Positions 1 to 46,800 of a DNA stretch of 64,000 nucleotides are shown here, piece by piece. Source of the stretch: Stegostoma tigrinum (taxonomy: Eukaryota); assembly GCF_030684315.1 (NCBI RefSeq), contig NC_081363.1, positions 46,097,254 to 46,161,253 on the forward strand, given 5' to 3'. Position 1 is the stretch's first letter. Every line of letters starts with the position of its first letter. The notes under the pieces are model-generated. The model made no database searches and was not told the origin of the DNA. It saw only the letters and a program-made list of their open reading frames with translations. A program made the position numbers and the translations under genes.

Positions 1-263
1 TGGGAGCATAGGTAATTCTAACACGCTTAGAAGCATTTGGTAATTTGAGGGCCTCAGCAAAGCGACTAGGAGCTGGCTTCAAGAAGCTGAAGCTGCCAGG
101 CTTCCTGCATGACATAGGTAAAATACTAACAGTGGCAGATGAGCGTGTTTACTCACAACTTAAGGGCCTCAATAGGCCCAAGGTTGGGCAGGGGACCTGA
201 CACCCTGAAAATCTCAGATCGGTGTGGGGGTGAGTGGGTAAATGACAGAAATGCCACCGACTC

Positions 264-376
264 AGTGATAGTAAGAACTGCCGATGCTATGGTCAGAGAT
301 AACACAGTGTGGAGCTGAAGGAACAGCATCAAAGGAGCAGAAAAGCTGACGTTTTGGGTCGGGACCCCTCTTCAGA
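264..376 (-). mobile_element. Single-arm remnant of the Penelope-derived family
   Basis: Similar to the family end (GATAGTAAGAACTGCCGATGCT...AAAGCTGACGTTTTGGGTC..ACCCCTCTTCAG). Confidence 0.7.
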
Positions 377-599
377 TTGCTGTGTTAAGGCCACCTACTG
401 GACTTCACATGCCCCTGCATCTCCACCTTCAAACATGCCAACTGGGCTAGTGTGAAAAAGCCCAATGACTTGTCAAGGCATCTCAGGCAACAAATCACTT
501 GAATGTCACCAGGACAAGAAAGAAGGAACCTGTTAATCCACCGCAAGTGTTCAATGTTTGTAACCTGAAGGGTCGCTCAATTATGGCTAAGAGGCTGCT

Positions 600-1485: not shown

Positions 1486-3247
1486 CCATTATTAGCATGT
1501 CCAGGTATATCCAATATTCCCAGAATAATAATATTTTCATTAGATTTGCTAAAACATGCATTTGTAAATTAGTTTTTTAAAACCAATTTATGTGATAATT
1601 CAGCTGAAAACAGCCTTTGAACTACTTCTAATTCTTCCTTCAACAGTATGATTGTGATTGTAGTGTAAAGAACATGTCCTTGTATTTTTCTGCATTTTTA
1701 AATGGTGAACAGAAAAAAGAAAAGAACTTAAAAACCAAGGATTGCTGCAGTTTAGAAGGCAAGGAACTCAACTCTCATCATAAGCATCATTTATACTGCT
1801 GATTATTCAAGCAGAAATTGAATTGTACTTTGTAGACAAACTGGCGCTGAAGGGTTGCATGCAAATGGAGAGTTAGTTGGCAATAAGAAGCTGAGTAGCC
1901 TATGATAACTGACCACTAGACCAATGACAAAGTCCTTTTTGTTTTGCACAACTATGCAATTGGTTCTCAGGTAGCTGAGAGAATAAGAGAGAGAAGCCTT
2001 CAGACCTCCACCAGATCAGAACCTCTTTCTGTTCTCTGCAGTAAAATCTACTTTAATCCAAAAGTAAACCAGTGTATTTTTCCTTTAGAAGTTTCTATAA
2101 GCTGTGACTTAATTAATAAAAGAAACCTTTTATAAGTGCAAACTTGTCCTCTGTATCTCTTGCAAACCAGCAACAGCCTCCAGCTTTTGAAGACCAGGAA
2201 GACTAAGAAACAGCATTCTGATCATCAGAAGAGTCATCTGAGCAGATTCTGTGAACTTTCCCAGTTTTCCCTCCATCCATAACACCTATGTTTTGTTTTC
2301 CTGGTTTGCCTGTAAACAAACTTGGAAGTTGTTTACATGTAGCTACTCTCTAATTATTTGTGATAAATAATTAATTTTGTTAGGTACAGGCATCTGGTCT
2401 GTGTCTTCTGTCAACCTGGATCTAAAAGGAAATCCTGTATCCTTTTTAAAATCTTTTAACTTTTGTGACGACAGAATATAGTGGAGCTGAAGTTCCAGCA
2501 TACTAAATCACAGAGGCATGACAATATTTTACCATACAAAAACAATTTCTGATTCAAATCATTACATAGATAAACTGAGACTGAAAACCTATTGAAAAAC
2601 AATTGAGCAAGCAACTAAACAGTAAAGTACACTTTGTTTTTAATTAAAGTAGTGAATGCACCTTGTTTGTAGGTTTGTTGATCGTCCAGTTTGAATTGGG
2701 TTTGCCGATCTCAATGGCAGCAACATTTTGGGTTTTTGGGTGCGAATGGCAATTATTACCCATCCCTAATTTCCCTTGAACTGACCAGCTTACTCAGATA
2801 CTGCAGAGGGCAGTCAACAGTTATCCGCATTGCTGTGCTTCTTAATCCAGCATGGATATCAGATAAATGAGCCAAACAGAATTTTAAAGCAATTAATTAT
2901 AGTTTAATTTTATGACTTATTAATTAAATTCAAGTTCCCCCAACTTCATTGATAAGATTTGGCCCCATGTTCCCAGTGCCATTAACATGACCCTCTGAAT
3001 TATTATTCTGACAACTAATCATTAAGTTAGCACTTCCTATTACATTACAATCAGCTTTTGAGGAAGGAAATGAAAATTATTTTTCAATTCATAAACCTAG
3101 CAAGTTACAGGAATTATTACTTTTTTAGGTCAACTAAGTGCACCCATACCCAGTTAATCTAATTTGCCCATTAGAAGGTGTGTTTGAAATGATTGAAGGC
3201 TGGGCAAATATATCATTTTGATACAACCAGAAATCATTTACAGTGTG

Positions 3248-3467
3248 CGATAACAAAGTGTGGAGCTGGATGAACACAGCAGGCCAAGCAGCATCTCAGG
3301 AGCACAAAAGCTGACATTTCGGGCATAGACCCTTCATCAGAGCTGAAGGGTCTAGGCCTGAAACGTAAGCTTTTGTGCTCCTAAGATGCTGCTTGGCCTG
3401 CTGTGTTCATCCAGCTTCACATTTGTTATCTCAAATTCTCCAGCATCTGCAGTTCCCATTATCTCTG
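3248..3467. mobile_element. Short fold-back Penelope-derived element
   Basis: About 90 bp inverted arms centred near 3341 plus a one-sided tail. TSD ATCATTTACAGTGTG (3233) / ATCATCTAGAGTGTG (3468). Confidence 0.85.
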
Positions 3468-4710
3468 ATCATCTAGAGTGTGGCTTTTCATTGTAGCACT
3501 AGTAGCAAAAATCTAATTTTAAAGCATCAAACTTTACAGAATCATAGAATCATCACTGCACAGAAGATTAACTATTTGACCAGTTATGTCCATGCTGGTT
3601 CTTTGCAGTAGCAACTCAGCTCATCACACTCCCTCTAAGAAAAGTTAGATCTGAAACGTTCCATAGATGCTGCTCGGTATGCTGACTGTTTCCAGTATTT
3701 CCTGTTTTATTTGAATCTTGTGCTCTGTTGCTCAGTGAACCATTATAGTGTATGCTGTGGTACTGAATCAAACTACAAATAGTAAGTTTCAGTTGATGCA
3801 GCACCAATTTCTAAATCTGGCCATAATGTTTGGAGGAGGAAGAGAAGTAACATTTTGTGCACTTTTTGATGCAAATTTAGGATTGAGAAGCAAGTTGTTT
3901 TAAACTAATGTTCATATTGTAGTGCAAATCTAGAATCAGGGCTCTGCTTTAATGCCTTCAAGGACTTGCATATATATTATGCCCATAATTCAATAAAACA
4001 TTTCAATAATCAAAGAAAAATAATGCTGATCTCTGGCATCTACACTAAAAACAAAGTGAATGCAACAGATTTGGCCACATTTGTGGAGAGAGAAACACAG
4101 TTGATGTTTGAATCCAGTATACACTTTCCAAATGGAGGAGGCTGGCAGAACAGCATCATTTTTACACACTTTCTGTTTTTATTATGAAACATCTCACAGA
4201 ATGTCATGGGAGTGATTATCAGACAAAAGTTGTCACCAGGTAACCTTAAAAAGCATTAGGAATTGCTTGGTCAGAGGTAGAGGCTAAAGGAGGGGAAGAG
4301 GGAAGTGAAGAGATTTGGACAGGGAATGGGTAGTTCAAGGTATCATTTTCTCAGGACACATAAAAGTAAGGCTCATTGGCAGAGAAAGGGCAGTACCAAC
4401 AAATTACAATTGGGCATTGCATGAAATACAACTTCAATCCAACATCAAGTCAAATATAAAAATGCACGGTGGTGTTTTGAATCTTTGAGACTCTTCCTAC
4501 CCCTATCACTAGGTAACTATATTCATCCTACTAAACACAGAATCTAACTGGTGCTCTGTAGTTTGCACATCACTGCACCATCTGGAATATGGGTTCCAGT
4601 CAATAGTTAAACTGGGCAAAGCCTGGCCAGAATCAAGACTACAGCTAATGGAGTGAGGTTTAGTTAAGGATCTGGGTCATGATCACAATCCAGTATCCCA
4701 TACTAAACAG

Positions 4711-4892
4711 AGATAACAAGGTGTAGAGCTGGATGAACACAGCAGGCCAAGCAGCATCTGAGAAGCAGATTTCGGGCGGTCTAGGCCTGAAAGGTCAGCT
4801 TTCCTGCTCCTCTGATGCTGCTTGGCCTGCTGTGTTCGTCTGGCTCTACACCTTGTTATCTCAGGTTCTGCTTCTGCAGTTCCTACTATCTC
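4711..4892. mobile_element. Short fold-back Penelope-derived element (second subfamily)
   Basis: Inverted arms AGATAACAAGGTGTAGAGC...GCTCTACACCTTGTTATCT. TSD TCCCATACTAAACAG (4696) / TCCCATCCTAAACAG (4893). Confidence 0.85.
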
Positions 4893-5249
4893 TCCCATCC
4901 TAAACAGGTCCGGATGTGTGACGTTCACAGATATAACTGGTGATGCCTCTTCAGCAGTTAAAATGTTCTGAACACTCACCAGGTTCTCCTTACCCAAGCA
5001 GCTAGTAACTTCAGAAGAAATGGACAGAAAAATGACAAAAGTTCTGCATACAAGTTCAGTTGGATATCTGCAATCCTACGGGTAGGGATGAAACTTTCTA
5101 ACTTGGTTTTGTGACTCATTGATTTCAACGTACATAGGGAATTTTATGAACAAAAGGAAATGTAATTTCACCCAACATGGTTGGAACTGTGTTTGTCAAT
5201 ATGTTGATGTCCTCACACATACAGACACACCCTTACATTACTAACCCAA

Positions 5250-6130
5250 GTTGTGGTTACACGCGGGAAGCCTGTGATTAGAGCTTGGCCCTGACTCTGA
5301 CCCCAATGTATTAGCTTGCTCACATATCGCACTGCCTACGTGCTCAATCAACCGTTCCCATCCCAAAAAGAGGGGCGAGCTGGTTTCTTGCACGAAGCAA
5401 CATCACCGCGGTCCAAACTTAGAAACCAGCATCGAGCATAAAACAAAGTGGCCTCGCACTGCACCAAATATATACCGATTTAGCACGTCTATTTGGGGAC
5501 ATCTCTAGAGCAACAACGTTCAAAACCGTTCTCATAAATGTGGTGTGGGGTGTAAATCTCTACACAAGCAACAAAGTAATTATGTTTCACACACTTCAGA
5601 AAAACCCTCACATATTCGCATGAAATTATCATCAAAGATCCATCGTTTGTTACCTGATAGGAACATTTTTGGTCATCCACCTGCCTTTTTGAAGTATGAT
5701 GCTCCTTACACCGGGCTGAAAATACACAATAAAGCAGCAAAAGGACCCGTGTCAACATGATAAGAAATGCTTAATCTCGCCTAATACGGTCAAACAAACC
5801 GCTTCAATCCAAATGCTGGAAAAAAAAATAAATGCCAACGCGAACCAGCAACTGGGAGTGAACAAACTCGACTCATTGAAAGTTTGCTGGTAGAAGTTCC
5901 ACCTCCTGGTAAATTTCACAATACTTCCTGGTCTGATGTGCAACACCAAACTCGCACGTCCCGAGACGCTACCAAACACCTCCGGTGGTGTAGTTGTTCG
6001 ATTTGCCGTTTGTTACCATGCGCCTGAGACACTGTACAGAATCAGATCAGTGGAGGGACAACTTCCTCTCAGTGTTGAGAGGACGTGGATTACGTGCTCG
6101 TTCGCTTCCATTTAGAGGAATTAGATTCTG
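5250..6130. promoter_or_regulatory. CpG-rich promoter region of the minus-strand gene (ERO1A), with an ACGTG (HRE/UPRE-like) cluster
   Basis: Local CpG enrichment against a CpG-depleted background. ACGTG/CACGT cores at 5338, 5484, 5955, 6083 and 6092. Confidence 0.6.
5654..5758 (-). CDS. ERO1A: Probable first coding exon of ERO1-like protein alpha (signal peptide); the rest of the gene was not found in 1-5653 and probably lies left of the window
   Basis: ATG at 5758 gives MLTRVLLLLYCVFSARCKEHHTSKRQVDDQKCSYQ, then a phase-0 donor CAG|GTAACA. The hydrophobic leader and QxCxxQ| end resemble the human ERO1A exon 1 end (AQRCFCQ|V). It lies in a CpG-rich patch, head-to-head with PSMC6 as in human synteny. 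Confidence 0.65.
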
Positions 6131-7594
6131 CTGGCAAGGGAGGGATCTTTGCTTGTGTTTTATTTATTTAAAGATATACAATCTGATGTCACACCTGTGT
6201 TACACCGTCCTATACAGAAAATAGCCTTTCTCATGGCATGACAAATGAGTATTTTATCGTGTCACTAACCCCATTTCCGCCTTGGACAAAATTGATTGAC
6301 CTCCAACGAATGACGTTGAAATCAACTTTGTTGGCACAGCCAGCATGACAACATGCTTGTTCTCAAATTAGTAGATTGTGTTTTGCGACAATATTTCTTT
6401 AAATACAGGACTTCAGGTTATTCTTTCACCAAAGAGTTTAACAGAATCGAGAATTTTCACTCTGGGAAGAGCCACATATAGATGCCAAAGTTTAACAACA
6501 GTCACAGGGTTACAATGCAATTTTTTAAACAATCAGGCCTTCTGATTAGTTTATAATCATGAAACGTGGAAGTCTGACCGGGAACTATTTTCTGTAGAGT
6601 AGAAAAGGTGGGTTTACTTGAAAAGGATTCGATATTAATTAAGGAATAAACATTCTATTTATTTCCTTGAAATCTTAACTACAATAATTTCAGCATCTAT
6701 TACTAAAGAAAATTGTTGAGGGGAATATGGGTCAGGATGGCTAAGTTGGCATTTATTGCTCTTTCCTAATTGCCCAGAGGGCAGTTAAGAATCAATTAGG
6801 TTTAAATGGATCTGGAGTCACATGTAGACAAGACCAGCAAAAGATGACAAACATCCTCCCCAAAAGGACATCAGGGGATATTTTTAACTTTAGTCATGTT
6901 CCAAGACAGTATCACTATTTAGACTCAAATTATGGGCAACATTTTTGCAGCTGTTACTTTGACTTTAACTCTGCAGGATCTAGATGTTATCATCTTCTTT
7001 GTCTACAGCATAATTGATAACATATTCTTTTAATTCACTTGCCAGCTGCTCTTAAACTTCTTCATTCAGTTGTAATGAGTCTTCGTATTTTATCTTACAC
7101 AACAAAGAATAAAGTTGTAATAAATAATTGTTTCTGTAATTTTGCTACATTTAATCTATAATCTCCATCAGGCTGGGACAGATAGACCAGACAACTATCT
7201 ACCAATGAGTCTGACATCAATGGTTGGTAAAATATTGTAGAAAAGAGTGACGGAGAGAATTAATCTCCATTTTGAGAGGCATGGTTTGTTAAGGGAGAGT
7301 CAGCATGACTTTGTCAGAGGGACATCATGCCTAACAAATCTGGTTGATATTTTTGAGAAGGTGACCAAATGTTTGGATGAGAGTGGGGCAATTGACAGAG
7401 TTTACATGGATTTCAACAAGATCTTTGACAAGGTCTCACATGGGAAACTGATTAAACAAAAAGATAAGAGCTCACAGAATATGGGTAATTTGGTATGTTG
7501 GATCCAAAATTGGCTTAGTGACAGGAGAAGGGGGTAGTGGTAGGAGACTGTTTGTGTGACTGGAGCCCAGTATACAGTAGCATAACATTTACAT

Positions 7595-7760
7595 CAGTCA
7601 TCTACAATCCCTACAGTGCAGATGAAGGCCATTAAACCCATTGAGTCTGCACTGACGTTTTGAAGAGCATCCCACCCAAACCCATACCACACGCTCTCGC
7701 CATAATCTTGCATTTATCATGGCTAATCACCTAACCTACACATCCCTGGACACTATGAGA
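7595..7760 (-). mobile_element. HE1-like SINE 3' fragment
   Basis: AATCCCTACAGTGCAGATGAAGGCCATT...CTAACCTACACATCCCTGGACACT, matching the copy near 38000. Confidence 0.6.
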
Positions 7761-8069
7761 TATTAAAAACATCAGAGAATAGCTGAAAACAAGAGAAGAC
7801 ATAACTTAAAATATGAGCAAAAGCTGGCTAGAAAATAAAAACAAAAAGAGTTTTTATAGGTATTTTAGAAGGAAGGAAGTAACCAACATGAGCTTTAGTC
7901 CTCTAGAAAATGAGTCTGGCTAATTAACAATGTGAGTTATAGAAATGGTGGATGCATTGAAGATAATACTGTCTGTTTTCATACAAGACACAAATAACAT
8001 CCTGGAAATACTCGTAAGTCAACAGTGAAAGGAAGAGATAAACTAAAAACAATTTCAGACTGTACTGTG

Positions 8070-8294
8070 ATAATAAAGTGTGAAGCTGGATGAACACAGC
8101 AAGCCAAGCAGCATCTCAGGAGCACAAAAGCTGATGTTTCGGGCCTAGACCCTTCATCAGACACCCTCTCTGATGAAGAGTCTAAGCCCAAAACGTCAGC
8201 TTTTGTGCTCCTGAGATGCTGCTTGGCCTGCTGTGTTCATCCAGCTTCACACTTTATTATCTTGGATTCTCCAGCATCTGCAGTTCCCATTATC
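8070..8294. mobile_element. Short fold-back Penelope-derived element nested in a CR1
   Basis: Inverted arms 8069-8160 and 8170-8261, 33 bp tail. TSD TCAGACTGTACTGTG (8055) / TCAGCCTGTACTGTG (8295). Confidence 0.87.
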
Positions 8295-9499
8295 TCAGCC
8301 TGTACTGTGCTGTACCTTTCTATGTTCTATGTTCTTAGGAAAAGGATACTAAGAATAATATTAGAATTAAAGGTAGAGAAGATACCAGGACCTGATGAAC
8401 TTCACCCTAAGGTCTTAAAAAGACTAGTTATTGAGATAGTAGATGCATTAGCTTCAATGTCCAAAATTCCCTGTATTCTGGAACTGTCTCATCAGATTGG
8501 AAAATGGCAAATGTATTCAAGATTTTATTCAAGAAAGGAGGGAGAAAGAAATCAAGAAATTATAGGCCAGGTAGTATAAGAGCTGGCAGATGGAAAATGC
8601 CAGAGTCTGTTGTTAAGAAGGTTATAGCAGGGAATTTAGAAATCTTACTATAAGTCAAAATCAACATGGTTTTGTGTAAATGTGTTTGACTAATTTGTCA
8701 GTTATTTAAGGAAGTAATAAGCAACAAAGATAACAGAGAAAATGTCCTTGCAGTGTTTTTGGATTTCCAAAAGGCATTTGATAAGGTTCCCATCAATATT
8801 TATTACACAAATTATGACCTCCAGGTGAGAATAAGCGTAGATCGATCATTTCCAGGTTGGCAAGAAAAAAACAAGTGGAGTTCCACAAGGATCATGCTGG
8901 GGCCTCAACTATTTCTAATTTAAATCAATAGCTTGAATGAGGAGAATAAATGTATGGTTGTTAAATACTGATTACCCAAAGATAGGTGATAAAATAAGTT
9001 GTGAAGAGTCTGCACTTATTATTAACAGATTAAGTGACCGGACAAATGTTTAATAAAGTTTAATGTGGGGAGATTTGAACTTGCCCATTTTGGCAGGAAG
9101 ATTAGGAAAGCAGCATTTGATTTAAATTGAGAGACATTAAAGAATACTATGATGCGGAAAGATATCTTCTACAGTAAGTCACAAAAACCAAGACTGTATT
9201 ACAATACATGATTAAGTTGGCAAATGAATGTTGTTGCTTATTGCAAGGAATTTAAAGTAGGGATATTTTGCTATACGTGTACAGGGCTTTGGTGAGATTA
9301 CATCTGAAATATTGTGTACAGTTTTGGTCTGCTCACTTAACTAAAGATATGTTTACATTCGAAGCATTACAATCTTCTGGAGTGGGAAGGGAAGGACAGC
9401 AGAAAGAGTGGCCAACCTATTTAGGGGTTGGATGTCAAACAACACAAAGCCAGTTGCAGAAAATCTACAGTGAATGTGTGAGGATAGCACAAGACAGAC

Positions 9500-29808
<20,309 letters not shown>

Positions 29809-30195
29809 AATAGCCCACCTTTTTAATCTTAATTGTACAGTTTAAAAGGGTTTAAAAACATATAAACCTTAAATGGGAGAGGAATCTGATGGTGGCTCTG
29901 TCGTGTCATTCATTGCAAGTGTATATCTGTATGCTGCAGACAGTAAGTGACGACTAACTTTCGTGTTCTGCTGCATTATATACGTATCGACTATTTTTAT
30001 GCCATAGTTTAGCTGTTGAAAAAATATTGTGTTGAAAATGATTTTGAAAAGCAAGTGTTAGCACCGAGACAGGTTTGTCTTAACAGTGTGATGTATTCTC
30101 TTGTATACAAATGACACTTGAAGCCTTTGTGGTGTGATGGTCACAATACAAGTTTATAGGTTTTTGATGAATTTGATTCATTTTCCCTAGGCCTC

Positions 30196-30201
30196 AATAA
30201 A
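30196..30201 (+). terminator. Probable PSMC6 polyadenylation signal
   Basis: First AATAAA after the stop codon (about 390 nt downstream), followed by U/GU-rich sequence. Confidence 0.6.
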
Positions 30202-31239
30202 ATTTAAATTTACAAGAATATGACCAGTTATTTGTTGAATATTTATATAACACTTGCAGATCTCCTGTGGCATTTTCATGATGAATCAAGTTTTATAAAG
30301 GCGTATTTTGTTAGCATTAATGGAGGGCAATGATTTATCAACATTGGAAACCGACCTCTGGGAAGAGAATCTAGGATTGGTATGACAAAGTGTAAAAGTG
30401 GACACTGGTGTTGTAGAATTTGAGATATGCCCCTAAAAGGACTTGAGTAGACCAGTTGCCCTTTAGTGTACTGTTAAAATGTTGGTCAACTTATACAGTA
30501 TTTAATAGCAATAAGTTTCCAAAAGAAACATGAAAGATTTTCATTTCATAATTACTCAGTTTCTAGGCTTTTGTACAAAGATTTCATTTAGCCTGATCAC
30601 TTATTCTGAAGACAGTGTGTGTTTTAGCTAAATGTGTAAGCAGAATAGAAATGAGTGATTATAAAAGAAAGATAAACAGTTTTCTGTGAATAAAGAAATT
30701 ATGATAATTGCTAATGATGACATGTTGTCTTGGTTTTTAAATTTACAACAGCATTAAATAAATATAATCAATTGTCTGAAATTAAAGCTTTGAGAATTAA
30801 ATGTCAATGTTAATTTGAAGTCTTCGACACAATCAAATTTTCACAGGGTGAGAGGGCATGCCCTTCTATGTGTCAGCATTTGCTGATGCACAACTTTTGC
30901 AATCAAAGACTTTAAAGTGCATAAACAAATATATATATATATATGTATAGTGAAAAAAATCTGTCTCATTGTTGAGGTAATGAAAAATTTCAGTAATGCC
31001 CAGCTTGTTAAGATTGGTGAAGCCTTAAAGTAAAAGTTTATAGGTCAAAGATATTAAAAAGTCACTCGAAGTATTATTACACAGATTTTGTTTAAACTTT
31101 TTCTGGATTCTTAATTCAAAATACAAATGAATTTTTTTTAAAAATCTGTTACGATTTGTTTGAATCATACTTCCTAGTAGAAATATTTAATTTTTAATTA
31201 TACCCGGTGTGAAGGATAAGAATTCACACAAACTGGTTG

Positions 31240-32060
31240 TATGAACATATGAAATAGATATGGAAGTAAACTATTTAGCCCTTCAGTAGAAACCAAAAGA
31301 ACTGCGGATGCTGTAAATCAGGAACAAAACAAAGTTGCTGGAAAAAACTCAGCAGGTCTAGCGGCATCTGTGAAGGAAAGAAACAGCTAACGTTTCAGGT
31401 CCAGTGATCCTTCCTCAGAACAGGTCACCTGACCCAAAACATTAACTCTGATTTTTCCTTCACGGATGCCACCAGACCTGCTGAGCTTTTCCAACAACTT
31501 CATTTTCATTCAGCCCTTCAAGCCTGCTCCGGAACTCAATGAGATTATGACTAATTTGTTTCAAATTCCACATTCCCATTACCTTCTGAAAAGCTTTGAT
31601 TCCATTGCCTAACTAGAATCTATTTATTTCTTAAAAAGTATTTAATGACATGGTCTCACTACTTTCTGAGGTGGAGAAATCCAAAGTGTCTCAGCCTTAT
31701 GAAAATGTTTCTCCGCTCTGCCCCGAAGAGGTAACCACTAATTTTTAAATAGTGCCCGCTAATCCTTTACTGACCAATAAGAGAAATACCCTTTCCTTGT
31801 CCACCTTGTCAAGACCATTTGATACATTTTAATCAAGTCACGCTCATTCTAAATTTCAGTGGAAAGGAGCCCATCTATTAAACCTATTCAAGACAACCCA
31901 CTCATTCCAAGAACATCATTTTTATGTTTGATGCCTCTTATAAATAAAGAAGGACATCCTGTTTGTCAGTTTGATTGTGTACTGTACCTACAGACTAATC
32001 TTTTGTAATCCCTGCACTAGAACACTAAATCCTTCCATACCTTTGGAATTCCATAATCAA
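31240..32060 (-). mobile_element. Degenerate CR1 3' fragment (hosts the 31286 element)
   Basis: Reverse-complement CR1 tail (GAACATATGAA..AGCCCTTCAAGCCTGCTCC). Confidence 0.6.
31286..31507. mobile_element. Fold-back Penelope-derived element (third, diverged subfamily)
   Basis: Inverted arms AAGTTGCTGGAAAA..CTCAGCAGGTCT / AGACCTGCTGAGCTTTTCCAACAACTT. Minus-strand CTGAGGAA..GAAACGTT motif. TSD ATTTAGCCCTTCA (31273) / ATTCAGCCCTTCA (31508). Confidence 0.78.
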
Positions 32061-32332
32061 TGTAAGTAGTAATTGGGCCTAATCATCTGTTTTTAGTTTG
32101 CAATTTCTAAATATTCTCTAAAGCTAGTGAATAGGATTACAAGATTCACTGTTTCTAGGAATCAACATAGGGTAAGTTACAATCTCCACATTTCTTGTCT
32201 GTGTCCTTAAATATATTTTAGGAAAACCTGTTACTGGCTTTCCAAAAGAAACAATACATTACCTGCTAATTTTGTGTAATTTTAAAAGTAACCACGACTC
32301 AGTTCAAATAAATAACTAAACTAATTCTTGTG

Positions 32333-32472
32333 ATAATGGGAACTGCAGATGCTGGAGAATCCAAGATAATAAAATGTGAGCTCTCTGATGGAGGGTCTAG
32401 GCCCGAAACGTCAGCTTTTGTGCTCCTGAGATGCTGCTTGGCCTGCTGTGTTCATCCAGCCTCACGTTTTGT
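32333..32472. mobile_element. Internally deleted fold-back Penelope-derived element, tail on the left
   Basis: Same family sequence. Perfect 16 bp TSD TAAACTAATTCTTGTG at 32317-32332 and 32473-32488. Confidence 0.85.
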
Positions 32473-33779
32473 TAAACTAATTCTTGTGTTTGCCTGACCA
32501 TAGTTTCCCCTTAAAATGATTGAAATTAATTAGGTTTTGTTTTGTTTATCTAGACAGTCATTAATGACTTTTTAAGAATCTGATTCTATGGATTCTGGTG
32601 CTTCAGAAAGACAAGACAATGATTAACTGCAAATGGGCTATTGACATCAGCCATCTTTATTTAATATAAATCCATATCTAATGTGGCTATTTATTATTTT
32701 GCAGATAAATCAATAGAATATTCAGGCTGCATCTTCTTAATCTATTTTCGTGCCCAGGCTTGTCAAATTTAACTGCTGCCCAAGCTGAAATTGGTTCATT
32801 TCTCACACTGAGGGTAAAGCTTTTGAGCCTTCCTAACCTGTGAGACAATTGATATTGTGTTAATCAACAAAATCATTGGGGCACTGATTCAAACTTTAAG
32901 TTAAAATTCTGTGGAAACTTGTAATTGACAGTAATATTGTTGGATGTTAGCAACTTGATATCTAAATTGTGTGTAAGTGTATATGATACATTGCAAATCC
33001 TGATTACTGGTATCAGACAGTTGTTTTTCAACTTTGGCTGAATTGTTGAACTTCAGATTTCTAAATTAACCGAGTAAAATGATGAACCTCAATGATGGTG
33101 TATGATCTATTTTTCACTATCTCCATACAATACTTGCAATTATACTTTTAGAATATACATTGTTTTCAAAAAAAGCAACCGATTCCAGTATGTTGTACGA
33201 ACATTGTAAATTTTGCAAAAAAAACTACATCTTGGTAACCTTTGTTTTAATTTCTAAATTTCACAGCCATGTTCTGTTAGTAAATTACCACACACAAGAT
33301 GTCACAAACAGACGTTTCCTTTGAATTTACTATTTAATTGTAGGACTTTAGAAGAGAGTTGCAGCAGGCCTTTTGTAATTAAAAAGGAGTCACAACCAGG
33401 CCTGCTTATGTTCCTCACTGTACATCTGCACATTTTCAGCACTTGACAAAACAGTCAATAGCATACCAATTTACTGAAGCACGTTTTCTTGTCTAGCTAT
33501 ATCACTTGATCACTTTTTCTGCTGCTGCCATTATGCCCTTTGATGCAATGCTGATCATATTCTGACAGACCTTCAGTTGAGACAGTAAAATCTTACTGTT
33601 CTGTGATTGACTTGAGGAAAGTGAAGCCTCAATAGCTCGTGCATTCAATTTTTGTGGGTTTGGATAATGTCAGTGGGGGTGGGTGCTTGTGATAAAGAGG
33701 AAGGGACATTGAATAAGATGGTGAGTGCTGAGTTGAGTAGGGATTTTGGGGGTGGGTTCTAAGAGTTGGTGAGGGCGAG

Positions 33780-34800
33780 TGATAGACATCTCTGGGTAGT
33801 TGCTGAGGAGATCGGGGACCGAGGCGATTTGGAAGTGTCGGGGGGGAAGTTAAGTGGTGGTTAGTGGCCATCGTAAGGTTTTGAGAATCAGAGAGAGGTG
33901 CTGGGGGATGTCGGTGGGATTCCTCGATAGGGTTGTTGGCAGGGAGTGGGGGTTTGGGTGCTGCAAAGTTATGGGTCTGCGGAAGCGTTGTTGGGGGGGG
34001 AGGAGGCTAGAGCGGGGCCTCTAGGAAAGCTTCGTATTGGTAGCGGTGAGTGGTCAATAGTTTGGGGTGGGGAGGAGGAGGTCGATGGTGGCGTTGAGGT
34101 GTCTATGGGAGGGGGTCATTGTCGGCGGTGACGGGCCTCGGGGCTGTCGTTAGGGGGACGGGTGCAGGTCAATGTTGGCGGTTGTTGGGGTGGGGGAGGG
34201 CGATGTCTTTGGGGGTGGGGTCAGTACGCGAGCTCCAACGGTTTCAGAATGGGGGGGTGTGGCGGCGAATGAGGTACGCGACCTGGAGCCAGCCGATTGG
34301 TTGCGTACTGGCCGTGACTTGCGGCGTGATGACGTTGTGTTGATGTTGGTTTCCAACAGCATGGCGGCGCGTGAGCTCCAGCACACGTAACAGAAAGAGC
34401 GAGAATATCTGAGGGGGGGTGGGGGGCAAAAAATTAACGACCATTACTGCCCCCCGGATAGATAGACCGAGAGATGGATGGAGTGCACCTGGAATTCCCG
34501 GCTCTACCGTCTTCCAGGGAAGACGCGGGGGTGGGTACACGTAAACGTAAACCGGCGCCGAGTTTCGGCCTAAAGTTGTGAACAAAGCCGGCTGTGATCC
34601 TGGAGGGGACGGGGGGACGGGGGGTGGCAGGAGGAGGTGAGTGGAGACTGGCTGCCAGGCGCCGTTAGTCGGAAATAGGCGCTGGACGACCCGCTGCAGC
34701 CGCCTGGTTTCCATAGTGTCGGCGATGTGAGGTGGCAAGCTTCGCTGAGTTTACCGCAGAGTATTTATTGATTTGCTTTCATTCTTGTGTCTCGGGAATT
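33780..34800 (+). promoter_or_regulatory. STYX CpG island/promoter, strongly G-skewed
   Basis: High GC and CpG content with many G-runs. Reverse CCAAT (ATTGG 34296-34300), CRE half-site TGACGT at 34330, YY1-like CATGGCGG at 34360. Contains STYX coding exon 1. Confidence 0.8.
34474..34530 (+). CDS. STYX: STYX coding exon 1
   Basis: MDGVHLEFPALPSSREDAG, donor |GTGGGT. Confidence 0.9.
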
Positions 34801-37800
34801 GCTGTGAAGTTTACTGAACTATTTAGGCTTTTATTTTGTTTTTGTCTCGTGTATCAATTCGGCTTTTTAGGGAGGTGTATTTTAATCTGGGCCGTGTTTG
34901 CTTCTATCTGACAAGTCAGCAACACGTGGGATTGAGGAACAAAACCAACTCCGTTTAAACTTCAACAAAACGTATTCAAGAGTTCTAGGAACTTCTTTGC
35001 TCTTTTCCAGAAAAAATGTGTACACAGCTTAAAATTATTTATTAACCTAATGGTAAAATGTCACAAGCTTTGAGCTACTAGAGAAAAGGGAAGCTTGAAG
35101 GTTGCGTAACCTCTGATTGTTCTTCCTGCTTGAGGCATGGGAAGGGCCTTCTGGCTGTTGGTCTCGGCTGGATCCTAAGCAGGGTTTGAGGGGTGGCGGG
35201 GAGGGTGGGAGGTAAAGCGAGTAAAGGTATATAAATGTTTCTTAACTATGTCAAGCATGTTTGCCTGTGTTTTGCATTAGATTTACCTAAGATTATGCAC
35301 CAAACAAATATAATATAGTATAACTCTATTCTTAAACTTTGGTTTCAGTGCCTTTCAAACATTTAAAATTGCTTGGAGCAAAGAAGCATGTATTTCATAG
35401 ATTTGACAAGTTCCTGCCGAGCAAATTTGTTGGAAAAATAAGAATTCTCAGCTCCTAATTTGCTCGTGTAGTCATAGTATTTGTTTGTCTGGTCCAGTTA
35501 AATTTCTGGTTAGTGATAATCCGTTAGGATAATGAAAGATTTTGCAGTGGTAAGTATTGCTAAGCATCAGTAGGAGTTGGTTAGCTGTTAGCTTTGATCT
35601 TGTTGAAGATGGTCATTATCTGGTACTTGGTGTGAATGTTAATGCCATTTATCAATCTAAATCTGGATGTTGTACATGTCTTCATGTGGGCTGTTGAACA
35701 TCTTGAATATTGTTGACTCTCTGTATGTTAAGAGGCACCATGGTAGAGTTAATAGAAATGACATTTCTTTTGCAAAGAAATAACCAGCAGCATGCATCTT
35801 AATACCTGCTAGTAGGAATAAAGGGAAGATCAGAAACATTATTGTCACAGGATGATTGAATTGCTGAACTGCTGAAAAGACTAATAAAAGCAGAATACCT
35901 CATCACATTAAAATTAAAGCTTGGGTGTGCACTTGAATTTGGACAGAGGGATTAGGCTGAATAACTCTTCTTTGACCTGCACGGAGCTGATAGGTTTCTG
36001 TGCTGTAAATTTTCTTTTTAGTTGTAAAATATTAAATGGTATAAGATGACATGGGCCCAGTAGGAAAAGTCAGTTTTGGAAAATGTGAAGTAGGCTAGGT
36101 AGCAGTTGCAGACAGGCTACAAAAGAGATACAGATAAGTTAAATTGTGTGCAAATATCTGGTAAATGATGTATTATATAGGGTGTGTGCAATTAAAACAT
36201 AGGTGGGTAGGTTCTTAAACAGAAGGGTGAAAAATTATTGGGGAAGTAGAAATATGGAGTAACCAGATGAACTATGATCTTAGTGATTGAGGAGTAGGCT
36301 TGAGGGACTGCATGGTCTACTCCTGTTCCTACCTAAATAAAATAAATTTAATTTTCAGACACATGCCCTTCTCGTTAAAACCAGTTCTGACAGATCATTG
36401 TTCTAAATGTTAACTGTTTCTCCATCGATTCTGCCCAATCGATCTATTTCTAGTTTTATCTGTTGTTATTTCCTATTTACAGCGTTTGTGATATTTTGTT
36501 TATGCATTAAAATTAACTAAAGGTGCATTTTTTTAATATCAGAATGTCATGCATTAAATATTTTAGGAGTGTTTGATAGACAAGGCTGGAGATAGGAAAT
36601 TCAAAATGAGTTTGGATCATACACTGAGAGAGTTGAGCTGCTCAAGAAATGATTTTTAATGGGCCATGTTGATAAAGTTTGTTTCCCTTTCTACTGTAGT
36701 TAAATCCAATTCATCCTTTTTATAACAGTACTACGTATTTCAGAACTCCATTTGCTTTTGGAGATCATTGACTATTAATTCCTTTCTGCATAATGGGACT
36801 ATGTAAATATAATTTTAAGATGTGAATACACCTTACACTTCAAAAAATTAAATGGACAGTATTTTTAAAATAACTTTTTAAATGACAGCTCTGAGCCCTC
36901 TCCTCAACCGATACTGAAATAGGATCTTTGTGCAAATAATGAAGGCATGACCCTTGTTAACCCCTGTCAAAGCAGAGTTTTCAGACCTGTGGTTAAATGG
37001 GCTTCTCCGTTTTGAGTTATCTCCTATTCTCAGTGGTAATCCCATAGATTTAATTCCAGCTGTGTTGCTGCACAATTATAACAACAGACCTTTTCAGATT
37101 TCAGCACTGGCTTCCATCTCTCATGTCAGTTGATTGCAAAAAAAAATCATGATTTGTTACTGAACCTCCTATTTTGTCCTATCGTGAAATACTGAGCATG
37201 CTTTGATTATGGTTGTGCTTCTGGCTCACAGACCTGTAATGTATGGACTGTCAGCTAACTGGAATTGCTGTTAAAATTATGATAGACTGATTGTTTGTAA
37301 CTGCTTTTTTAATTCTTTAGCTTTTTTAAAAGTATTGCAATTAAACTGCAATTTTGTTTTGAAACAGGGTAATATTTGAAGATGCCTAACATTTGGCACT
37401 TTATCTTTTTCTTCTTTGTAAGATCCTTTTTGATTGAAGTTAACATAATGAGCTGCTGCATTATAATTACTCTGTAGATGTAGTTTATTACTTGCCTTTT
37501 TCAAAAGTACTTATCAGCTTTTCCCTCCAACAGCCATACTGCTTTCAATCAACTCAACTCAAAACAAAATAATTTTACAGACAGTTTGTTTGATTCAGGA
37601 TTATTTCTGAAGGCAGTCTGACATTAAATGGGTGTGTGAAATTAGACTAAATATAGAAAAAATGCTTTAAATACAACTGGCAAAATACTCAGGCTAAGAT
37701 GCAAAATCTGAAATAATGGCCATTAAAATTGGGGTTTTGGAAATACGAGATAAATTCTGGAGTTTGATGAGATGATGAATTTTAAATGTCAGATTCTAAT

Positions 37801-40800: not shown

Positions 40801-43800
40801 ATTCAAGGACTCTTGTTACCACTGCATTTTCAGAAGTGCGAAAAACTTCAAACTCCTGAGAGAAAATGTTTTGTCCCATCTCTGTTTTAAATATACAATT
40901 CCTGATCTTTTGAAGAGTGATCCTAAATTCCAGATTCTCCCAAAAGAGGAAACATCATCTCAGCTTCTACCCTGACAAGACCCCTTAGCATTTTGTGTTT
41001 CAGACGATTCTAAATCCCAGCAAGTAGAACTTAGCCTGTCAACCTTTTCTCATCTTGTGTCGTCAGCAAATTTGGCGACTGTACCCTCCATCCTTTTATC
41101 CAAGTTAATTAATAAATTGTAAACAATTGAGGTCTCCAATCGCTGTGGCACACACTCCTTACAGACAGTCCCCAAGTTGTGAATGGGTTCCATTTTGGAG
41201 TCCATTTGCAAGTTGATTTGTTCGCAAGTCAGAAGACAATATAAAGGAGTCGTTTGTAAGTACAAGAAATGTTTGCATGTCAAGTATTTAAATTTATATT
41301 GTTGTATGAGATGATATTTGTAATTGTGAACATTCAAATGTAAGGTCTTTTTAAATCAGTTACCTTTTGTATATCTTACTGACCTCAAAAAGATGTCCTG
41401 TTATTCAGGTAATCTTTCATTTGTGTAAATGTACTGTCTCCTACAGAATGAACTTTTATTTTGAACATAATCTTTGATGTGCTACTATATCAAAAGCCTT
41501 CTGGAATCAAAGTGCAATACAGCCACTAGTTCAGCTTTATCCACAGCTTGCTTACCTCCTCAAACAACTCCAATGGACTGATCAAATGTCATATTCGTTC
41601 ACAAATTATTGTTGACTCTGCCTCAACTTATCCAAGTGACCTTCTTTCATAACAGCTTCTAACAAATCTCCTATTGTAAATGTTAAGCTACTAGCTTGCT
41701 GTTTAATGTTTCATCTTCTCTTCTGGATAAAGTTGTTACTTTAGCTTTTACTAAATTTTAAAATTTATTGTGGGAATCTTAAAAGCAACATTATTTTTGT
41801 AGGCTGCTTATGTTCTAATCAACTGAAAATAAATTCTTCCTTTAATTTTTAATAAGGCTTAATTTCTCTTGCTATGGTTATCTGCTGTTGTCATGTAGTA
41901 GATATGTCATTTGCCTGGAGCCAGTCCAAAGTTTGTTCTCAGCTCCTGATGGCTTGTTTCCGTTCCAAGCCAAGTAACTGCTCATCCTAGAACTGGCTTT
42001 CTCTTTGGGCCTTTTATAAATGGAGATTCCTCCACTGTAGCTCAAGTTAGGTGACTTTTTCAGCCTCCTTTTAAATTGTCAGGAGCTCAGTCTCTCCTTT
42101 CTGAATGTGGGCTCCAATTTGCATGGTGAACAATAAAGTCAGTATTTTCTGTATTTCAGGTTCAGGACTAGCTGGTATTGCTGCCTCCTGTTTGTCTGTC
42201 AGATGTTTAAATGCTGACTTGTGTCTGACAGTTTCAGGGCTATTTTAGAAAACTGCAACTCGATCCTTCCATCACTTTCTACTAATATTTCCTTTCTGGA
42301 AGTTCCATCTCTATGGCACAAGTATGATGGACCTTGTGTCTACGTAGAAATGTGGATTAGCTGTTTTCTAAACTGTTGGAGAAAAAGCAAATAATGTCAA
42401 ACATTATTTCACTTTTGCACTTCTTATGACATTTGCAAGACTACAAATTCAGGGGAAAATCAACATTTTTATACTGCATGAAAAGAGAGTATTGCTGCCA
42501 AGGAGAATGCATCCATTAATATTAATTAGATTTTTATAAAGCAGGTAGGCTTTGGTCAGGGCATTGTCTTGAGAAATTAACCAGCCCATGGCTGTCACAT
42601 ATTTTTTTTCAAGTGGAAAAAGAAAAGTGCTTGTATATGTTATTTCTGTCCTTTAAGAACAGCATCCCGTGCATGCAAATATGCTTTGCTGCGAGCCTGA
42701 ATGATAATGCTAAATTGATTGTCACCATAATTCCTTGCACATTCCCAGTTATCCAATAAACTTTACTCAATTGCCGAATCACATCTAATGTTAGACATCA
42801 TTGTGAATGTTGCTAGTATGGTCTGGTTGGGTGCATAAGTAGACGCTCATTATGAACAGCTAAAGGGTATATTATTTGATGTGATCTGCTAGTCTTTGGA
42901 ACGTATGGCCTACATACCATCACATTGGCACTGAAACCATATTACCATAGTTTTGTGAAGGGCAAAATGTCTCTTTGACCTGACAGCAGCGCCCAGATAG
43001 TGACAACCATCACTTGTGTTGCTGCTGCTGAGTATTAGAGTAAAACAACTAGCTTCATCTGTTAATCAAACATTTGAAATACCCTGCTCTTCCAGGGTAA
43101 CCTGATAGATGTTTCAGGATGAGAAGTGACTGCCTTAAGGCCTTTTCATGAGTTTGTGCAATATATAATAAGAAGTGATGTGACCAGGGTGGCTGTTATA
43201 CCACAGGATGATTTTGATGTGCCTTGTTTCCGAATCAAGTTTGCACAGTGAAAAAATGGCTTGTGGCCCTATTTATGAGGTTACTCAAAAGATCACTTTT
43301 ATAGTGCATGAAATTGTAGGAATCTGAACTTGTGTACTGAGTAATGATGATAGTTTCCAATAACAGTTGTACAAAACAACCTGATTGATTTCTCAATGAG
43401 GACATTGAGGAAAGTGAGCTGATTTAACTGTTTCATTTTAAATGTGAATTTGAGCACAGGATGCCATGCATTAAGATCTTTCAGAAATTTTTCTCTGCAG
43501 CTCTGGATTTAGGGATGGAAAACATTGTCATCAACATGTTGGAAATGTTCAAGGGATAGGAGGCTCATTGTCATCCAATTAAAGATACATTTCTCATGGA
43601 ACCCAATGAAGATGTTTGTGAGCATTGGGTTTCATAAAGATTCCATGGCAACACCATTTATGTGACCATACACGGTGTCATAGAAACTGAGCCCAGCTGC
43701 ACAGGTTGATGAGTTCATAATTTGTACAAATATTGATTCATGTAATGGTGGCAAGTCTGGATTGTCATGATACAGTGCTGTAGTGCAGATGTCAATAGCT

Positions 43801-46800
43801 TCTTTGAGTACATAGATACCGTAATAGTATTCACTTGCAAGTCCCGTATGATCTTTGTAAATGTGAAAGAATTTTTTTTTGTTGTTGTAGGCACGGGCAA
43901 CTTGCTGTTTGTCTAAACATGGTCCTGATTCCTATTTTTTTAAAAAGCACACTACTTAATCCACTCAACATGGCACAGAACCAGCACAATGGTAAATGTT
44001 GATCCATTCATTCTTAAGCAATGACATAGGAGATGTACGAGTACAACTGTACAAAAAAAAGTGGGAGTGTGACATTAGGTCATCCATTCACCTCTTCCCT
44101 TATCTTAACTTGCAATCCGTTCTGTTCACCCACTTCACTTTCCTGTCTTTGCTTTGTTTTGTAACCCATGATTCTTCCATTGATTAAAAATCTACCTTTC
44201 TTTCTCGGCCTTAAGGACCCAGCCTGAACAGCCTTTTGCGTGTAGAATTCCACAAATTCACTACCCTCAGGAGAAACTCTTCCTCATCTCTTGTCTTGAA
44301 AAGGCAGCTCCTTGTTCTGAGATTATGTCCTCTGGTCCAAGACTTCCTACATGGGGGAACAATCTTGCTGCATCTACCCTTCAAGTCCCCCAGTGATTTT
44401 TTTAATGTTTCAACAAGCAACACCCCCCCCCCCCCCCCCCCCCCCCCCGCCCCCAACTGTGTCTTCCAACAAGTACAGGCCAGCGTATTTAATCACTCTG
44501 TGCCTGGTATCCGTCTGGTTACCCTTCTCTGGACTGCCTTCAATACTAGCATATCTTTGCTTGAACAACGGCACTAAAACTGTTCACCGTATTCTAGCTG
44601 TGTTCTAACTGCCTTCTATCGTTTCAGCAAGGCCTCCCTATTTTCTACTCCATTCTTGTTGAAGTGAAGGCCAGCATTTCATTTGGATTCCCCTATTGTA
44701 CATTGAACCTCCTGTGCTAGCTTTTCTTGTGTTTATACACAAGAACACCAATCCCTTCGTGCCTTCTGCAGTTTTTATCCATTGAAATCACATTCACCTC
44801 TTCTCACCTCTTGTGCCAAAGTACATAACCTCATATTTTCCACATTTGTTCCATCTGCCATGTTTTTGTCCACTCACTTAAATTGTCTTTATCTCACTGT
44901 ACACATTTTGTGTGACCCTCTCACTATTTGCCTATCCACCTATTCTTATAGCCGGGTTTGCAATGATCTTAATATGCTGTGGCATATATGTTGCTATGGC
45001 ACTCCACTTGTTCCAGGTTATTATCCTGAAAATGCCCTCCTTATTGCAACTGTTTTGTATTAGTTAACCAATCCTCTATACATGCTAATGCACTGCCTAC
45101 AATGCCATGAGGCTTTAATCTGCAATCTTTATCAAAAGCCTCATGAAAATCCACATATATTCACTCCTTCCCCATTATATCTATACTGCTTGTCACCATC
45201 TCAAAGTATTCTAGTAAGTGTATTAGGCATGATTTCCCCTTTTGTGAAGCCATGCCATCTCTGCTTGTTCATATTATGTATTTTAAATGATCTGCTATTA
45301 TGTTCTTTGTAATAGATTCTAACAATGTTGAAACAACAGATATTAAACTAACTGGCCTATATAGTTACTTAGTTCTTTTGCTTCCTTCCCTTCTTTCAAT
45401 AAAGGTGTCAGATTTAACACAACAAGGTGTCAAATTTGCTGTTTCCAATCGTCTGGGAGTTTTTCAGAATCTAAAGATTCTTCAGAGATTACTAACAATA
45501 TATCCTTAATTAGAATGCATCCCTTGCGCTCAGTTTCCCCAGCACTTTTTTCTCTAGTTATTTATTGCTTCACTTCCTTTTGTCCTTTGTTTGGTAATTT
45601 TAGGGCGTATTTAGTGTCTTCTGCTATGCAAAGTTTTTATTCAATTCCTCTGCCCTTTCCTTATTCCCCAATATTATTTTCCCAGTCTCATTCATTAAAG
45701 AGTCTATGTTAACTTTGGCGTGTCTTCATTCATATATAAATTAAGGATACTACAGCTGCAAGTTGATAAAACTTGTAAGTTTACCCTCAAAGTTTGTCTT
45801 TTCCCTCTACTATTTCTTTGGTCACCTTTTGTTGTTTTTTTTATAACTTTCCCAATCACCTACCTTACTACTAATCTTTGTCACACTGAAAGAAAAAAAA
45901 TACACAGTTGATGCTATCCTTAACTTCCCTGCTATTAACATAAAAATCATAATTTCCAAATTCATGTTATTTGCAGTTTGTTTGATGGGAAGTTGCAGAC
46001 CTCAGGATCTAAATAGTAAATATTTTTCTTTACTAGCTCCCAATTCTTGAGGAAAATGGAATAACTCACATAATATGTGTACGGCAGGATATTGAGGCAA
46101 ACTTCATCAAGGCAAATTTCCAAGAGAAATTTAGGTAAATATTTGAAATTATACTTGTTAGTAAATATTCTCTGAAAGGTATGTGTTGATTGTGTTTTTG
46201 CTATGTGCTCATTTTATTGGGATCAAGCAAAATTCTTGACTCTGCTATCGAGCATCAGAGACAACTGTGACAGTAGTTATAAACTTGACAATTCCCTGTA
46301 CTTTTCAATCTTCTCCTTTACACACATCGTTAGGAATTCAACTGTTTGATACTTGCTTATAGCAGTGAGGCCTGAGGAGAAAGCTCTTGTAGAATGTGGG
46401 AGGTAAGGATCACCATTCGTGTCCCTTCTGACTTCACCTGCAAGAAGTGTACCCAATTCCAGCTCCTCTGAGACTGCGTTAAGAAACTGCAGCTGGATGA
46501 ACTTCAGATCATTCGGGAGGCTGAGGTGATGATAGAGAGGAGCTATAGGGAGATAGTCACATCTAAGTTACAGGTTAAAGGTAGCTGGGTGACCATCAGG
46601 AAAGGGAAAGAGATTAGGCAAACAGTGCAGGGATCCCCATTGGCCATTCCCCTCAATAATAAATATACCACTTTGGATGCTGGGTGGGGGGTTGGGGGAG
46701 CGGAATTTCTTAATGAATACTTTGTTTCAGTATTCACCAGTGAGAGGGACCTTGTCATTAATGAGGACAGCATGAAACAGGCTGAAATGCTGGAACAGCT

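Follow-up and report, generated by a model that had tools for sequence, protein, structure and literature searches.

What produced the short inverted-repeat insertions that recur in a 64,000-nucleotide stretch of the Stegostoma tigrinum genome (RefSeq assembly GCF_030684315.1, contig NC_081363.1, positions 46,097,254 to 46,161,253 of the forward strand; hereafter the window, 38% GC)? A sequence-only reading of these letters had described them as one family of fold-back units carrying hammerhead ribozymes and had suggested that, although they resemble miniature inverted-repeat transposable elements (MITEs), they derive from a Penelope-like element (PLE), either as a non-autonomous ribozyme-bearing family or as the dominant truncation product of a shark PLE. 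The explanation that we consider likely is the second: each unit is made of the 5'-truncated ends of a Neptune-type shark PLE, joined head to head between target-site duplications (TSDs), and was inserted separately by the reverse transcriptase (RT)-endonuclease.

A profile built from 18 arms (nhmmer) recovered 20 arms at 13 loci spanning 262 to 32,476, the 18 training arms matching by construction, and gave one further weak match near 46.5 kb. Seven insertions had been proposed to be TSD-bounded, and direct repeats of 13-18 bp indeed bound all seven. We ran an identical direct-repeat search on 150 random pairs, in which the top score of 9 was reached by 2 of the 150. Six units exceeded every control: 4711 (14/15 matches, score 12), 8070 (16/18, 12), 13641 (16/18, 12), 15321 (13/13, 13), 31286 (12/13, 10) and 32333 (16/16, 16); the seventh, 3248 (13/15, 9), equals the control maximum. 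The range of lengths is similar to the 13-16 bp first reported, if somewhat wider at 13-18 bp; for the two 18-mers (8070 and 13641) about 4 nt also match the element end, so that 14 is the cautious length. The arm loci and their boundaries are as follows.

250..399, minus strand: unit x264, a single tailed arm (262-378) with a weak TSD (250-262 / 387-399; 11/13, score 7) and, by eye only, a possible ~8-nt tip of a second arm.
3233..3482: unit A, TSD 3233-3247 / 3468-3482; antisense tailless arm 3248-3342, sense arm and tail 3343-3467.
3640..3711, plus strand: decayed arm of the second type (nhmmer E 5e-6, outside the training set).
4058..4109, minus strand: decayed arm of the second type (nhmmer E 0.003, outside the training set).
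4696..4907: unit B, TSD 4696-4710 / 4893-4907; antisense arm 4711-4778, sense arm and tail 4779-4892.
8052..8309: unit C, TSD 8052-8069 / 8292-8309 (14-18 bp); antisense arm 8070-8161, sense arm and tail 8162-8295.
12013..12108, minus strand: single decayed arm of the second type; a TSD was sought and none found.
13623..13853: unit D, TSD 13623-13640 / 13836-13853 (14-18 bp); antisense arm 13641-13734, sense arm and tail 13735-13835.
15308..16462: unit E, a 1,129-bp fold-back with a perfect 13-bp TSD (15308-15320 / 16450-16462) and its centre at ~16104.
17513..17669, plus strand: single tailed arm of the second type (17522-17655) with a weak direct repeat (8/9).
28631..28733, plus strand: single tailless arm of the second type; a TSD was sought and none found.
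31273..31520: unit F, second arm type, TSD 31273-31285 / 31508-31520; tailed minus-strand arm 31286-31419, tailless arm 31420-31509.
32317..32488: unit G, perfect 16-bp TSD 32317-32332 / 32473-32488; antisense tail and ~14-17 nt of arm end 32333-32380, sense tailless arm 32381-32472 starting 4 nt before the ribozyme core.

Five of the seven units (A, B, C, D and F) are two-arm fold-backs of ~200 bp, with inverted arm pairs at 3256-3424, 4705-4867, 8069-8261, 13639-13808 and 31343-31490 that are 89-95% complementary across 37-93 nt; the unit at 8052-8309 folded with z = -21 against 200 shuffles. The description of every unit as a short, non-coding pair of inverted arms fits these five but fails for the other two in different ways: unit G is barely a fold-back, its second arm being ~14-17 nt, and unit E extends from 15321 to 16449 and carries RT and GIY-YIG coding pieces. 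The four loci first listed as single-arm remnants (264, 12030, 17522 and 28631) proved to be genuine arms, and a further two, both decayed, were recovered at 3640 and 4058. All six have TSD scores inside the control range (264, 7; 17522, 6; 4058, 6; the others at most 4). Empty sites sought among paralogous repeats within the window were found for none of 11 units. At 17522 both flanks match other window repeats, never together at one locus, and we take these flanks to be CR1-like.

The unpaired tail on one side only was recovered by alignment in 7/7 units, at about 32-38 nt, and in most units the tailless end and the tail end both lie at a similar TTATC(TC)-like motif. The arms do not form the single family first proposed: there are two clearly distinct arm types, plus sub-variants, and unit F (31286) belongs to the second type and lacks the tail sequence that had been quoted for the whole set.

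The origin of the arms can be read from unit E, whose parts are arranged as follows.

15321..16106, minus strand: left arm; an RT piece with YIDD (16106-15869), a deletion, the GIY-YIG C-terminus (~15866-15724), a pyrimidine-rich 3' untranslated region (UTR), a hammerhead core at 15412 and the tailless end at 15321.
16104..16449, plus strand: right arm; a GIY-YIG piece (16104-16277), most of the 3' UTR deleted, the arm end at ~16416 and the tail to 16449.
16325, plus strand: first core base (C3) of the right-arm minimal hammerhead, with the predicted cut between 16352 and 16353.

The RT and GIY-YIG pieces of E are 93-94% identical to carpet-shark open reading frames (ORFs). Its 52-aa RT piece matched 115 of 117 candidate proteins, the top two, from Stegostoma and Rhincodon, at 94%, and these predicted proteins have RVT_1 and/or GIY-YIG domain matches; the E fragments alone gave no Pfam matches. 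In one relative, protein P0001, which can be mapped onto unit E, a single frame covers the RT, the endonuclease, the 3' UTR and then the arm. Public contigs (Stegostoma tigrinum and other species) run uninterrupted across the junctions and deletions of E, with loose ends at 16104, 16277 and 16291. Judged from this arrangement, the arm is the 3' pseudo-long-terminal-repeat (pseudo-LTR) end of an element encoding RT and GIY-YIG, and the proposed retroelement origin, from a PLE and not as MITEs, is upheld by an ORF link that lies within the window itself. The internal deletions of E number three and differ between the arms (15860-15875, 16277-16295); one has a short, templated-looking filler.

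Penelope, Neptune and Poseidon had all been named as families for comparison, and the protein motifs point to a Neptune-type element. Neptune and Nematis share a CX2-5CxxC linker that Penelope and Poseidon lack (PMC8557442). Protein P0002, a 94%-identical relative, has a CX4CxxC linker between RT and endonuclease at residues 318-326, outside the span of the window fragment, and thus does not fit the linker-less Penelope/Poseidon type. By eye, two cysteines of a CCHH-type motif lie inside the GIY-YIG domain of P0001 and P0002, in a stretch that is deleted in the window copy, and the P0002 endonuclease resembles the Neptune1_Nv row of the supplementary alignment. The family is accordingly assigned by motifs as probably Neptune-type and not Penelope/Poseidon-type, with a linker that is common to Nematis too. 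Further searches around the element gave little. A search with a candidate ORF start in the arm produced one weak match among 11 candidates, 3' UTR read-through relatives numbered 0 of 51 candidates, and solved structures matching P0002 at E below 0.1 numbered zero. A 31-nt arm pattern had no copies in metagenomes and none in viral contigs; 31 metagenome loci with a looser 21-nt pattern were rejected as chance, the profile matching only partial arms at 8-19 bits, and in viral contigs the looser pattern likewise had no copies. Among 23 runs, none was listed as an RNA holder, an outcome with no bearing on expression. A protein (P0003) encoded on a 474-bp contig labelled Proteus mirabilis shares 88% identity with the shark PLE RT; host contamination of the record is the probable reason.

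The arms had also been said to carry hammerhead cores, intact or decayed, at their inner ends. Cores are present in some arms, though they are mostly decayed or cut off: a strict minimal hammerhead descriptor matched one of 20 arms (16325; shuffle mean 0.01 matches), and a relaxed pattern found the core letters kept in six of the 20. Both arms of unit B miss the first half of the core. Rfam returned eight matches at E of 5 or lower, none of them to a hammerhead family; six were to microRNA families and all eight fell below threshold. The folding of the arm RNAs did not exceed that of shuffles (z 0.39 to -0.96), as expected for a ribozyme that depends on dimers. By eye, helix I may reach 3-4 bp with differing paired letters in arms 3340, 17522 and 31418, against 2 bp in the young arms.

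We placed the inner ends of 18 arms relative to C3, omitting 3640 and 4058 as too decayed. Fifteen of them fall in the interval from -6 to +21, the interval from +22 to +75 is empty, and the other three comprise two ends far upstream and one at +76. This clustering has P 4e-9 under a constant hazard; in the young family alone, whose upstream sequence is known, the count is 5 vs 0 (P 0.003). The largest class of loose ends in contig sample X1 comprises 908 contigs starting at 16324, one base 5' of the core; the DNA that precedes them is unrelated (agreement 0.36). In sample X14, 15 contigs likewise start at 16324. We take the arms to share a boundary lying no more than about 10 nt from the core. 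This boundary differs from the ribozyme cut site, cleavage at which would take away the core, and a splice site was rejected for want of AG at -2/-1 in the young family. Joints near 16355-16356 at first suggested ends at the cut site, but among them AG microhomology is a confounder, and the offset of at least 32 nt in the listed joints suggests assembly bias. As to the cause of the stop, the one that we favour, at about even chances, is run-off of the cDNA at the 5' end of an RNA initiated in the pseudo-LTR; stalling at the ribozyme or at the pyrimidine tract may instead be responsible and is the main alternative.

These features can be assembled into a single insertion event. In vitro, Poseidon_Ac of Anolis cuts and extends both strands, and two internal RT start sites bracket the tail; the enzyme is a predicted dimer, ribozyme cleavage is dispensable and uncleaved ribozyme RNA is used (PMC11167929). 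By extension to the shark element, nicks made by the enzyme in the two strands would be staggered by about 13-16 bp, leaving two 3' ends that would act as primers: one would start its cDNA at the tail start site and the other at a site ~35 nt farther upstream. Both cDNAs would halt near the ribozyme, mostly within 28 nt around it, and host end-joining would fuse them to give the order TSD, inverted tailless arm, arm plus tail, TSD. Staggered nicks and two start sites would thus yield the TSD, the tail and the inversion at once, as the anole Poseidon biochemistry suggests (PMC11167929). The hammerheads would be passengers, the whole ones copied from uncleaved RNA. A stagger of ~15 nt, proposed earlier from TSD length, is a fair inference, yet a loose one with 13-18 bp seen.

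Several points weigh against this account or parts of it. The in vitro biochemistry is that of Poseidon, not Neptune. The -6 to +21 zone was picked after the data were seen, and for the older arm types, whose upstream sequence is unknown, the alignment could fake an end at -1 or shift ends by a few bases. In D. virilis, 46 nt separate the start site from the intron downstream of it, and the intron end maps to helix I (PMC2377424, PMC4209133), which offers no precedent there for run-off at the ribozyme edge. Centres were counted in the seven window units and in 15 of 140 contig joints, and TSDs in the window. Contig sample X1 is undercounted and may be the window's own source sample. The listed fold-back joints are all offset by at least 32 nt, and near-symmetric shared centres may be hidden. 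The case for two templates, described below, comes from two units only (E and G), and gene conversion among very many copies could mimic discordant arms.

A sharp 5' boundary would also be expected if the template were a short single-arm RNA of ~130 nt, running from ribozyme start to tail and made from solo pseudo-LTRs, a partner like a short interspersed element or a retrozyme, with the fold-backs arising as two copies joined at insertion. Such an RNA may serve as template: solo pseudo-LTRs and their mobilisation in trans have been described (PMC3846280), and X1 holds head-to-tail joints, located elsewhere in this species, from 16447 to 16319 (3 contigs) and from 16454 to 16325 (2 contigs) that imply a ribozyme-to-tail monomer of 129-130 nt, retrozyme-like in layout, yet joined away from the cut site. 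The short young arms, however, have no private variants relative to ORF-linked arms, the arm of G differing from those of E at 1/89 sites (99% identical), and the boundary itself lies off the ribozyme cut site, contrary to what a retrozyme circle predicts. In these data the short template looks the same as run-off at the 5' end of a full-length RNA. We regard it as unlikely.

The inverted arm might instead arise by the self-priming (fold-back) on a single antisense template that PMC3846280 puts forward, and the variants of the arms bear on this. Arms made in this way should be identical at birth. The two arms of E are identical for 92 nt, which self-priming would explain, as it would the head-to-head junctions with short palindromes and the one variant that the arms of unit C have in common. 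Directly upstream of the identical stretch, though, the E arms differ at 4 of ~35 nt, and in the endonuclease at 3 of ~62 nt. One of these differences is AA vs TT: TT fits P0001 at the protein level, and AA fits the loose-end consensuses of 151 contigs in sample X5 and 10 in X14. In G, 13 positions are shared by the two arms; 2 of them are discordant, in each case for a variant common in the family, and one of the two is a CpG (chance 0.01-0.14). Both E and G therefore carry different family variants on their two arms, and extension of both strands from sense RNA has been seen in vitro (PMC11167929), which makes self-priming quite unlikely. On these variants, the balance tips slightly towards two arms copied from two RNA molecules. 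The fuller picture, in which a dimer holding two RNAs lets both target strands prime cDNA close to the 5' end of transcripts initiated in the pseudo-LTR, produces run-off at the 5' edge of the ribozyme, much like a strong stop, and joins the pair head to head, is one that we advance tentatively and do not expect to hold in full. If true, short fold-backs would document, across the genome, how templates pair and where RNA 5' ends lie, which would settle the origin of PLE inverted repeats.

Could the units have been longer once? Insertions consisting of an inverted pseudo-LTR followed by pseudo-LTR, ORF and pseudo-LTR are typical (PMC3846280), and collapse of the direct pair by recombination would give the layout seen here, as would deletion at the palindrome centre of a long or full-length insertion; E has three internal deletions, and B lost both core halves. 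Such shrinkage probably explains only some centres (B and D). The partnerless arms 264, 17522 and 28631 stop at the same place as the 908 contigs and the paired arms, so palindrome collapse does not explain the boundary, and G is short yet has a perfect TSD and 1% divergence. As a general account, later shrinkage is decidedly unlikely.

A further possibility is that the ~200-bp palindrome constitutes a non-autonomous element, which is transcribed and reinserted whole. Five of the seven units are alike in size and layout, and non-autonomous pseudo-LTR derivatives exist (retrozymes, 10.64898/2026.07.22.740005; Chlamys MRC1, PMC8557442). Shared centres across loci had been named as the sign of such amplification. 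We found seven different centres in seven units, none shared within or between arm types, with inner arm ends from -790 to +76 relative to C3 and arm lengths from ~14 to ~785 nt. In public contigs, where 15 of 140 joints were listed and the listing is probably blind to near-symmetric centres, the strand-change joints among those listed are all different, with 1-3 contigs each (4 joints in X1, 2 in X14), and this partial view contains no dominant shared centre. Given seven different centres and no dominant contig centre, the palindrome as a unit is probably not amplifying. Moreover, G and E follow the same TSD and tail logic despite arms of ~14 and ~785 nt, and a re-copied palindrome would start at its tail, leaving the second start site needless. 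We judge an amplifying palindrome very improbable; of the two options first offered, the dominant truncation product of a shark PLE fits, and a non-autonomous ribozyme family lacks support as far as the palindromic unit is concerned. Finally, the chance that the units are MITEs of a DNA transposon, which are likewise short, with inverted arms and flanking duplications, is practically nil, as the arms join RT and GIY-YIG sequence instead of belonging to terminal inverted repeats without a PLE ORF, an ORF link that refutes such an origin, and the TSDs vary from 13 to 18 bp and the ends are asymmetric.

Elsewhere in the window, a CpG island at 34100-34800 (34001-35000: 55% GC, CpG observed/expected 0.96) has CCAAT-like and CRE-like motifs by eye and is probably a host promoter; all 13 arm loci are found left of the island (P about 3e-4 under uniform placement). 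An older and different PLE relic occupies 49810-49160 on the minus strand, with a decayed GIY-YIG end 32% identical to P0001 and a hammerhead-like core at 49261, about 260 nt past that end; a fold-back sought at this relic was not found. A decayed RT fragment at 43386-43694 (minus strand), 28-32% identical to shark PLE RTs, represents a further old family. RT fragments of another type, with a weak RVT_1 match, lie at 46472-47793 and other spots, and from their motifs we presume them to be CR1-like.

Stubs of this kind mimic MITEs and microRNA hairpins, which is a warning in itself. As short, TSD-bounded and very abundant copies in which arm template discordance and cDNA stops can be counted, they are also test material for the formation of PLE inverted repeats, a problem called unresolved in PMC8557442 and PMC11167929. 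The ribozyme-edge stop and the possible two-template origin merit a genome-wide count. In the literature searched, which did not extend to Repbase, Dfam or most subscription papers, we found nothing on PLE arms ending at the ribozyme edge, on shark fold-back stubs or on two-template PLE insertion.

How do these units compare with known systems? In a typical insertion of an endonuclease-bearing PLE, a direct copy is met head to head by a 5'-truncated inverted one; a TSD surrounds the unit, a tail of 30-40 bp is present at one end only and the pseudo-LTR contains a hammerhead (PMC3846280, PMC8557442). The shark units resemble such insertions in their link to an ORF with RT followed by GIY-YIG, their inverted copy, one-sided tail and TSD, and their minimal pseudo-LTR hammerhead. 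They differ from the published insertions in that most are cut to the last 90-130 nt on both sides, and their TSDs of 13-18 bp are longer than the 8-10 bp of the Adineta examples (PMC3846280, PMC8557442). They resemble the Neptune clade in the C-terminal GIY-YIG, the CX2-5CxxC linker and the CCHH-type cysteines of P0002; unlike the microsatellite targeting proposed for Neptune (PMC8557442), none of the seven target sites is a microsatellite. The parts of the Poseidon_Ac paper cited here contain no model of the inverted copy, TSD length, 5' ribozyme stop or template number (PMC11167929).

Minimal PLE hammerheads occur as paired motifs 100-700 bp apart on opposite strands, with many solo motifs from truncated PLEs (PMC4209133). 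The shark arms have in common with them a core of type I, the additional base that follows position 9, the G10.1-C11.1 pair, the palindromic 15.2-16.2 and the lack of helix III, and the young arms depart from the hammerheads of PMC4209133 in a helix I of only 2 bp. Animal non-LTR retrozymes, short, non-coding, hammerhead-bearing derivatives of pseudo-LTRs, have been described in genomes that include one chondrichthyan (10.64898/2026.07.22.740005). Retrozymes are head-to-tail tandems with an intact, same-strand ribozyme per unit, whereas the window units are head to head, with one ribozyme per strand, or single. The architecture of inverted copy, one-sided tail and minimal hammerheads is thus already published, and the family is an ordinary one; less ordinary are its arms, which mostly stop at the ribozyme, and two young inserts whose arms possibly came from two RNAs.

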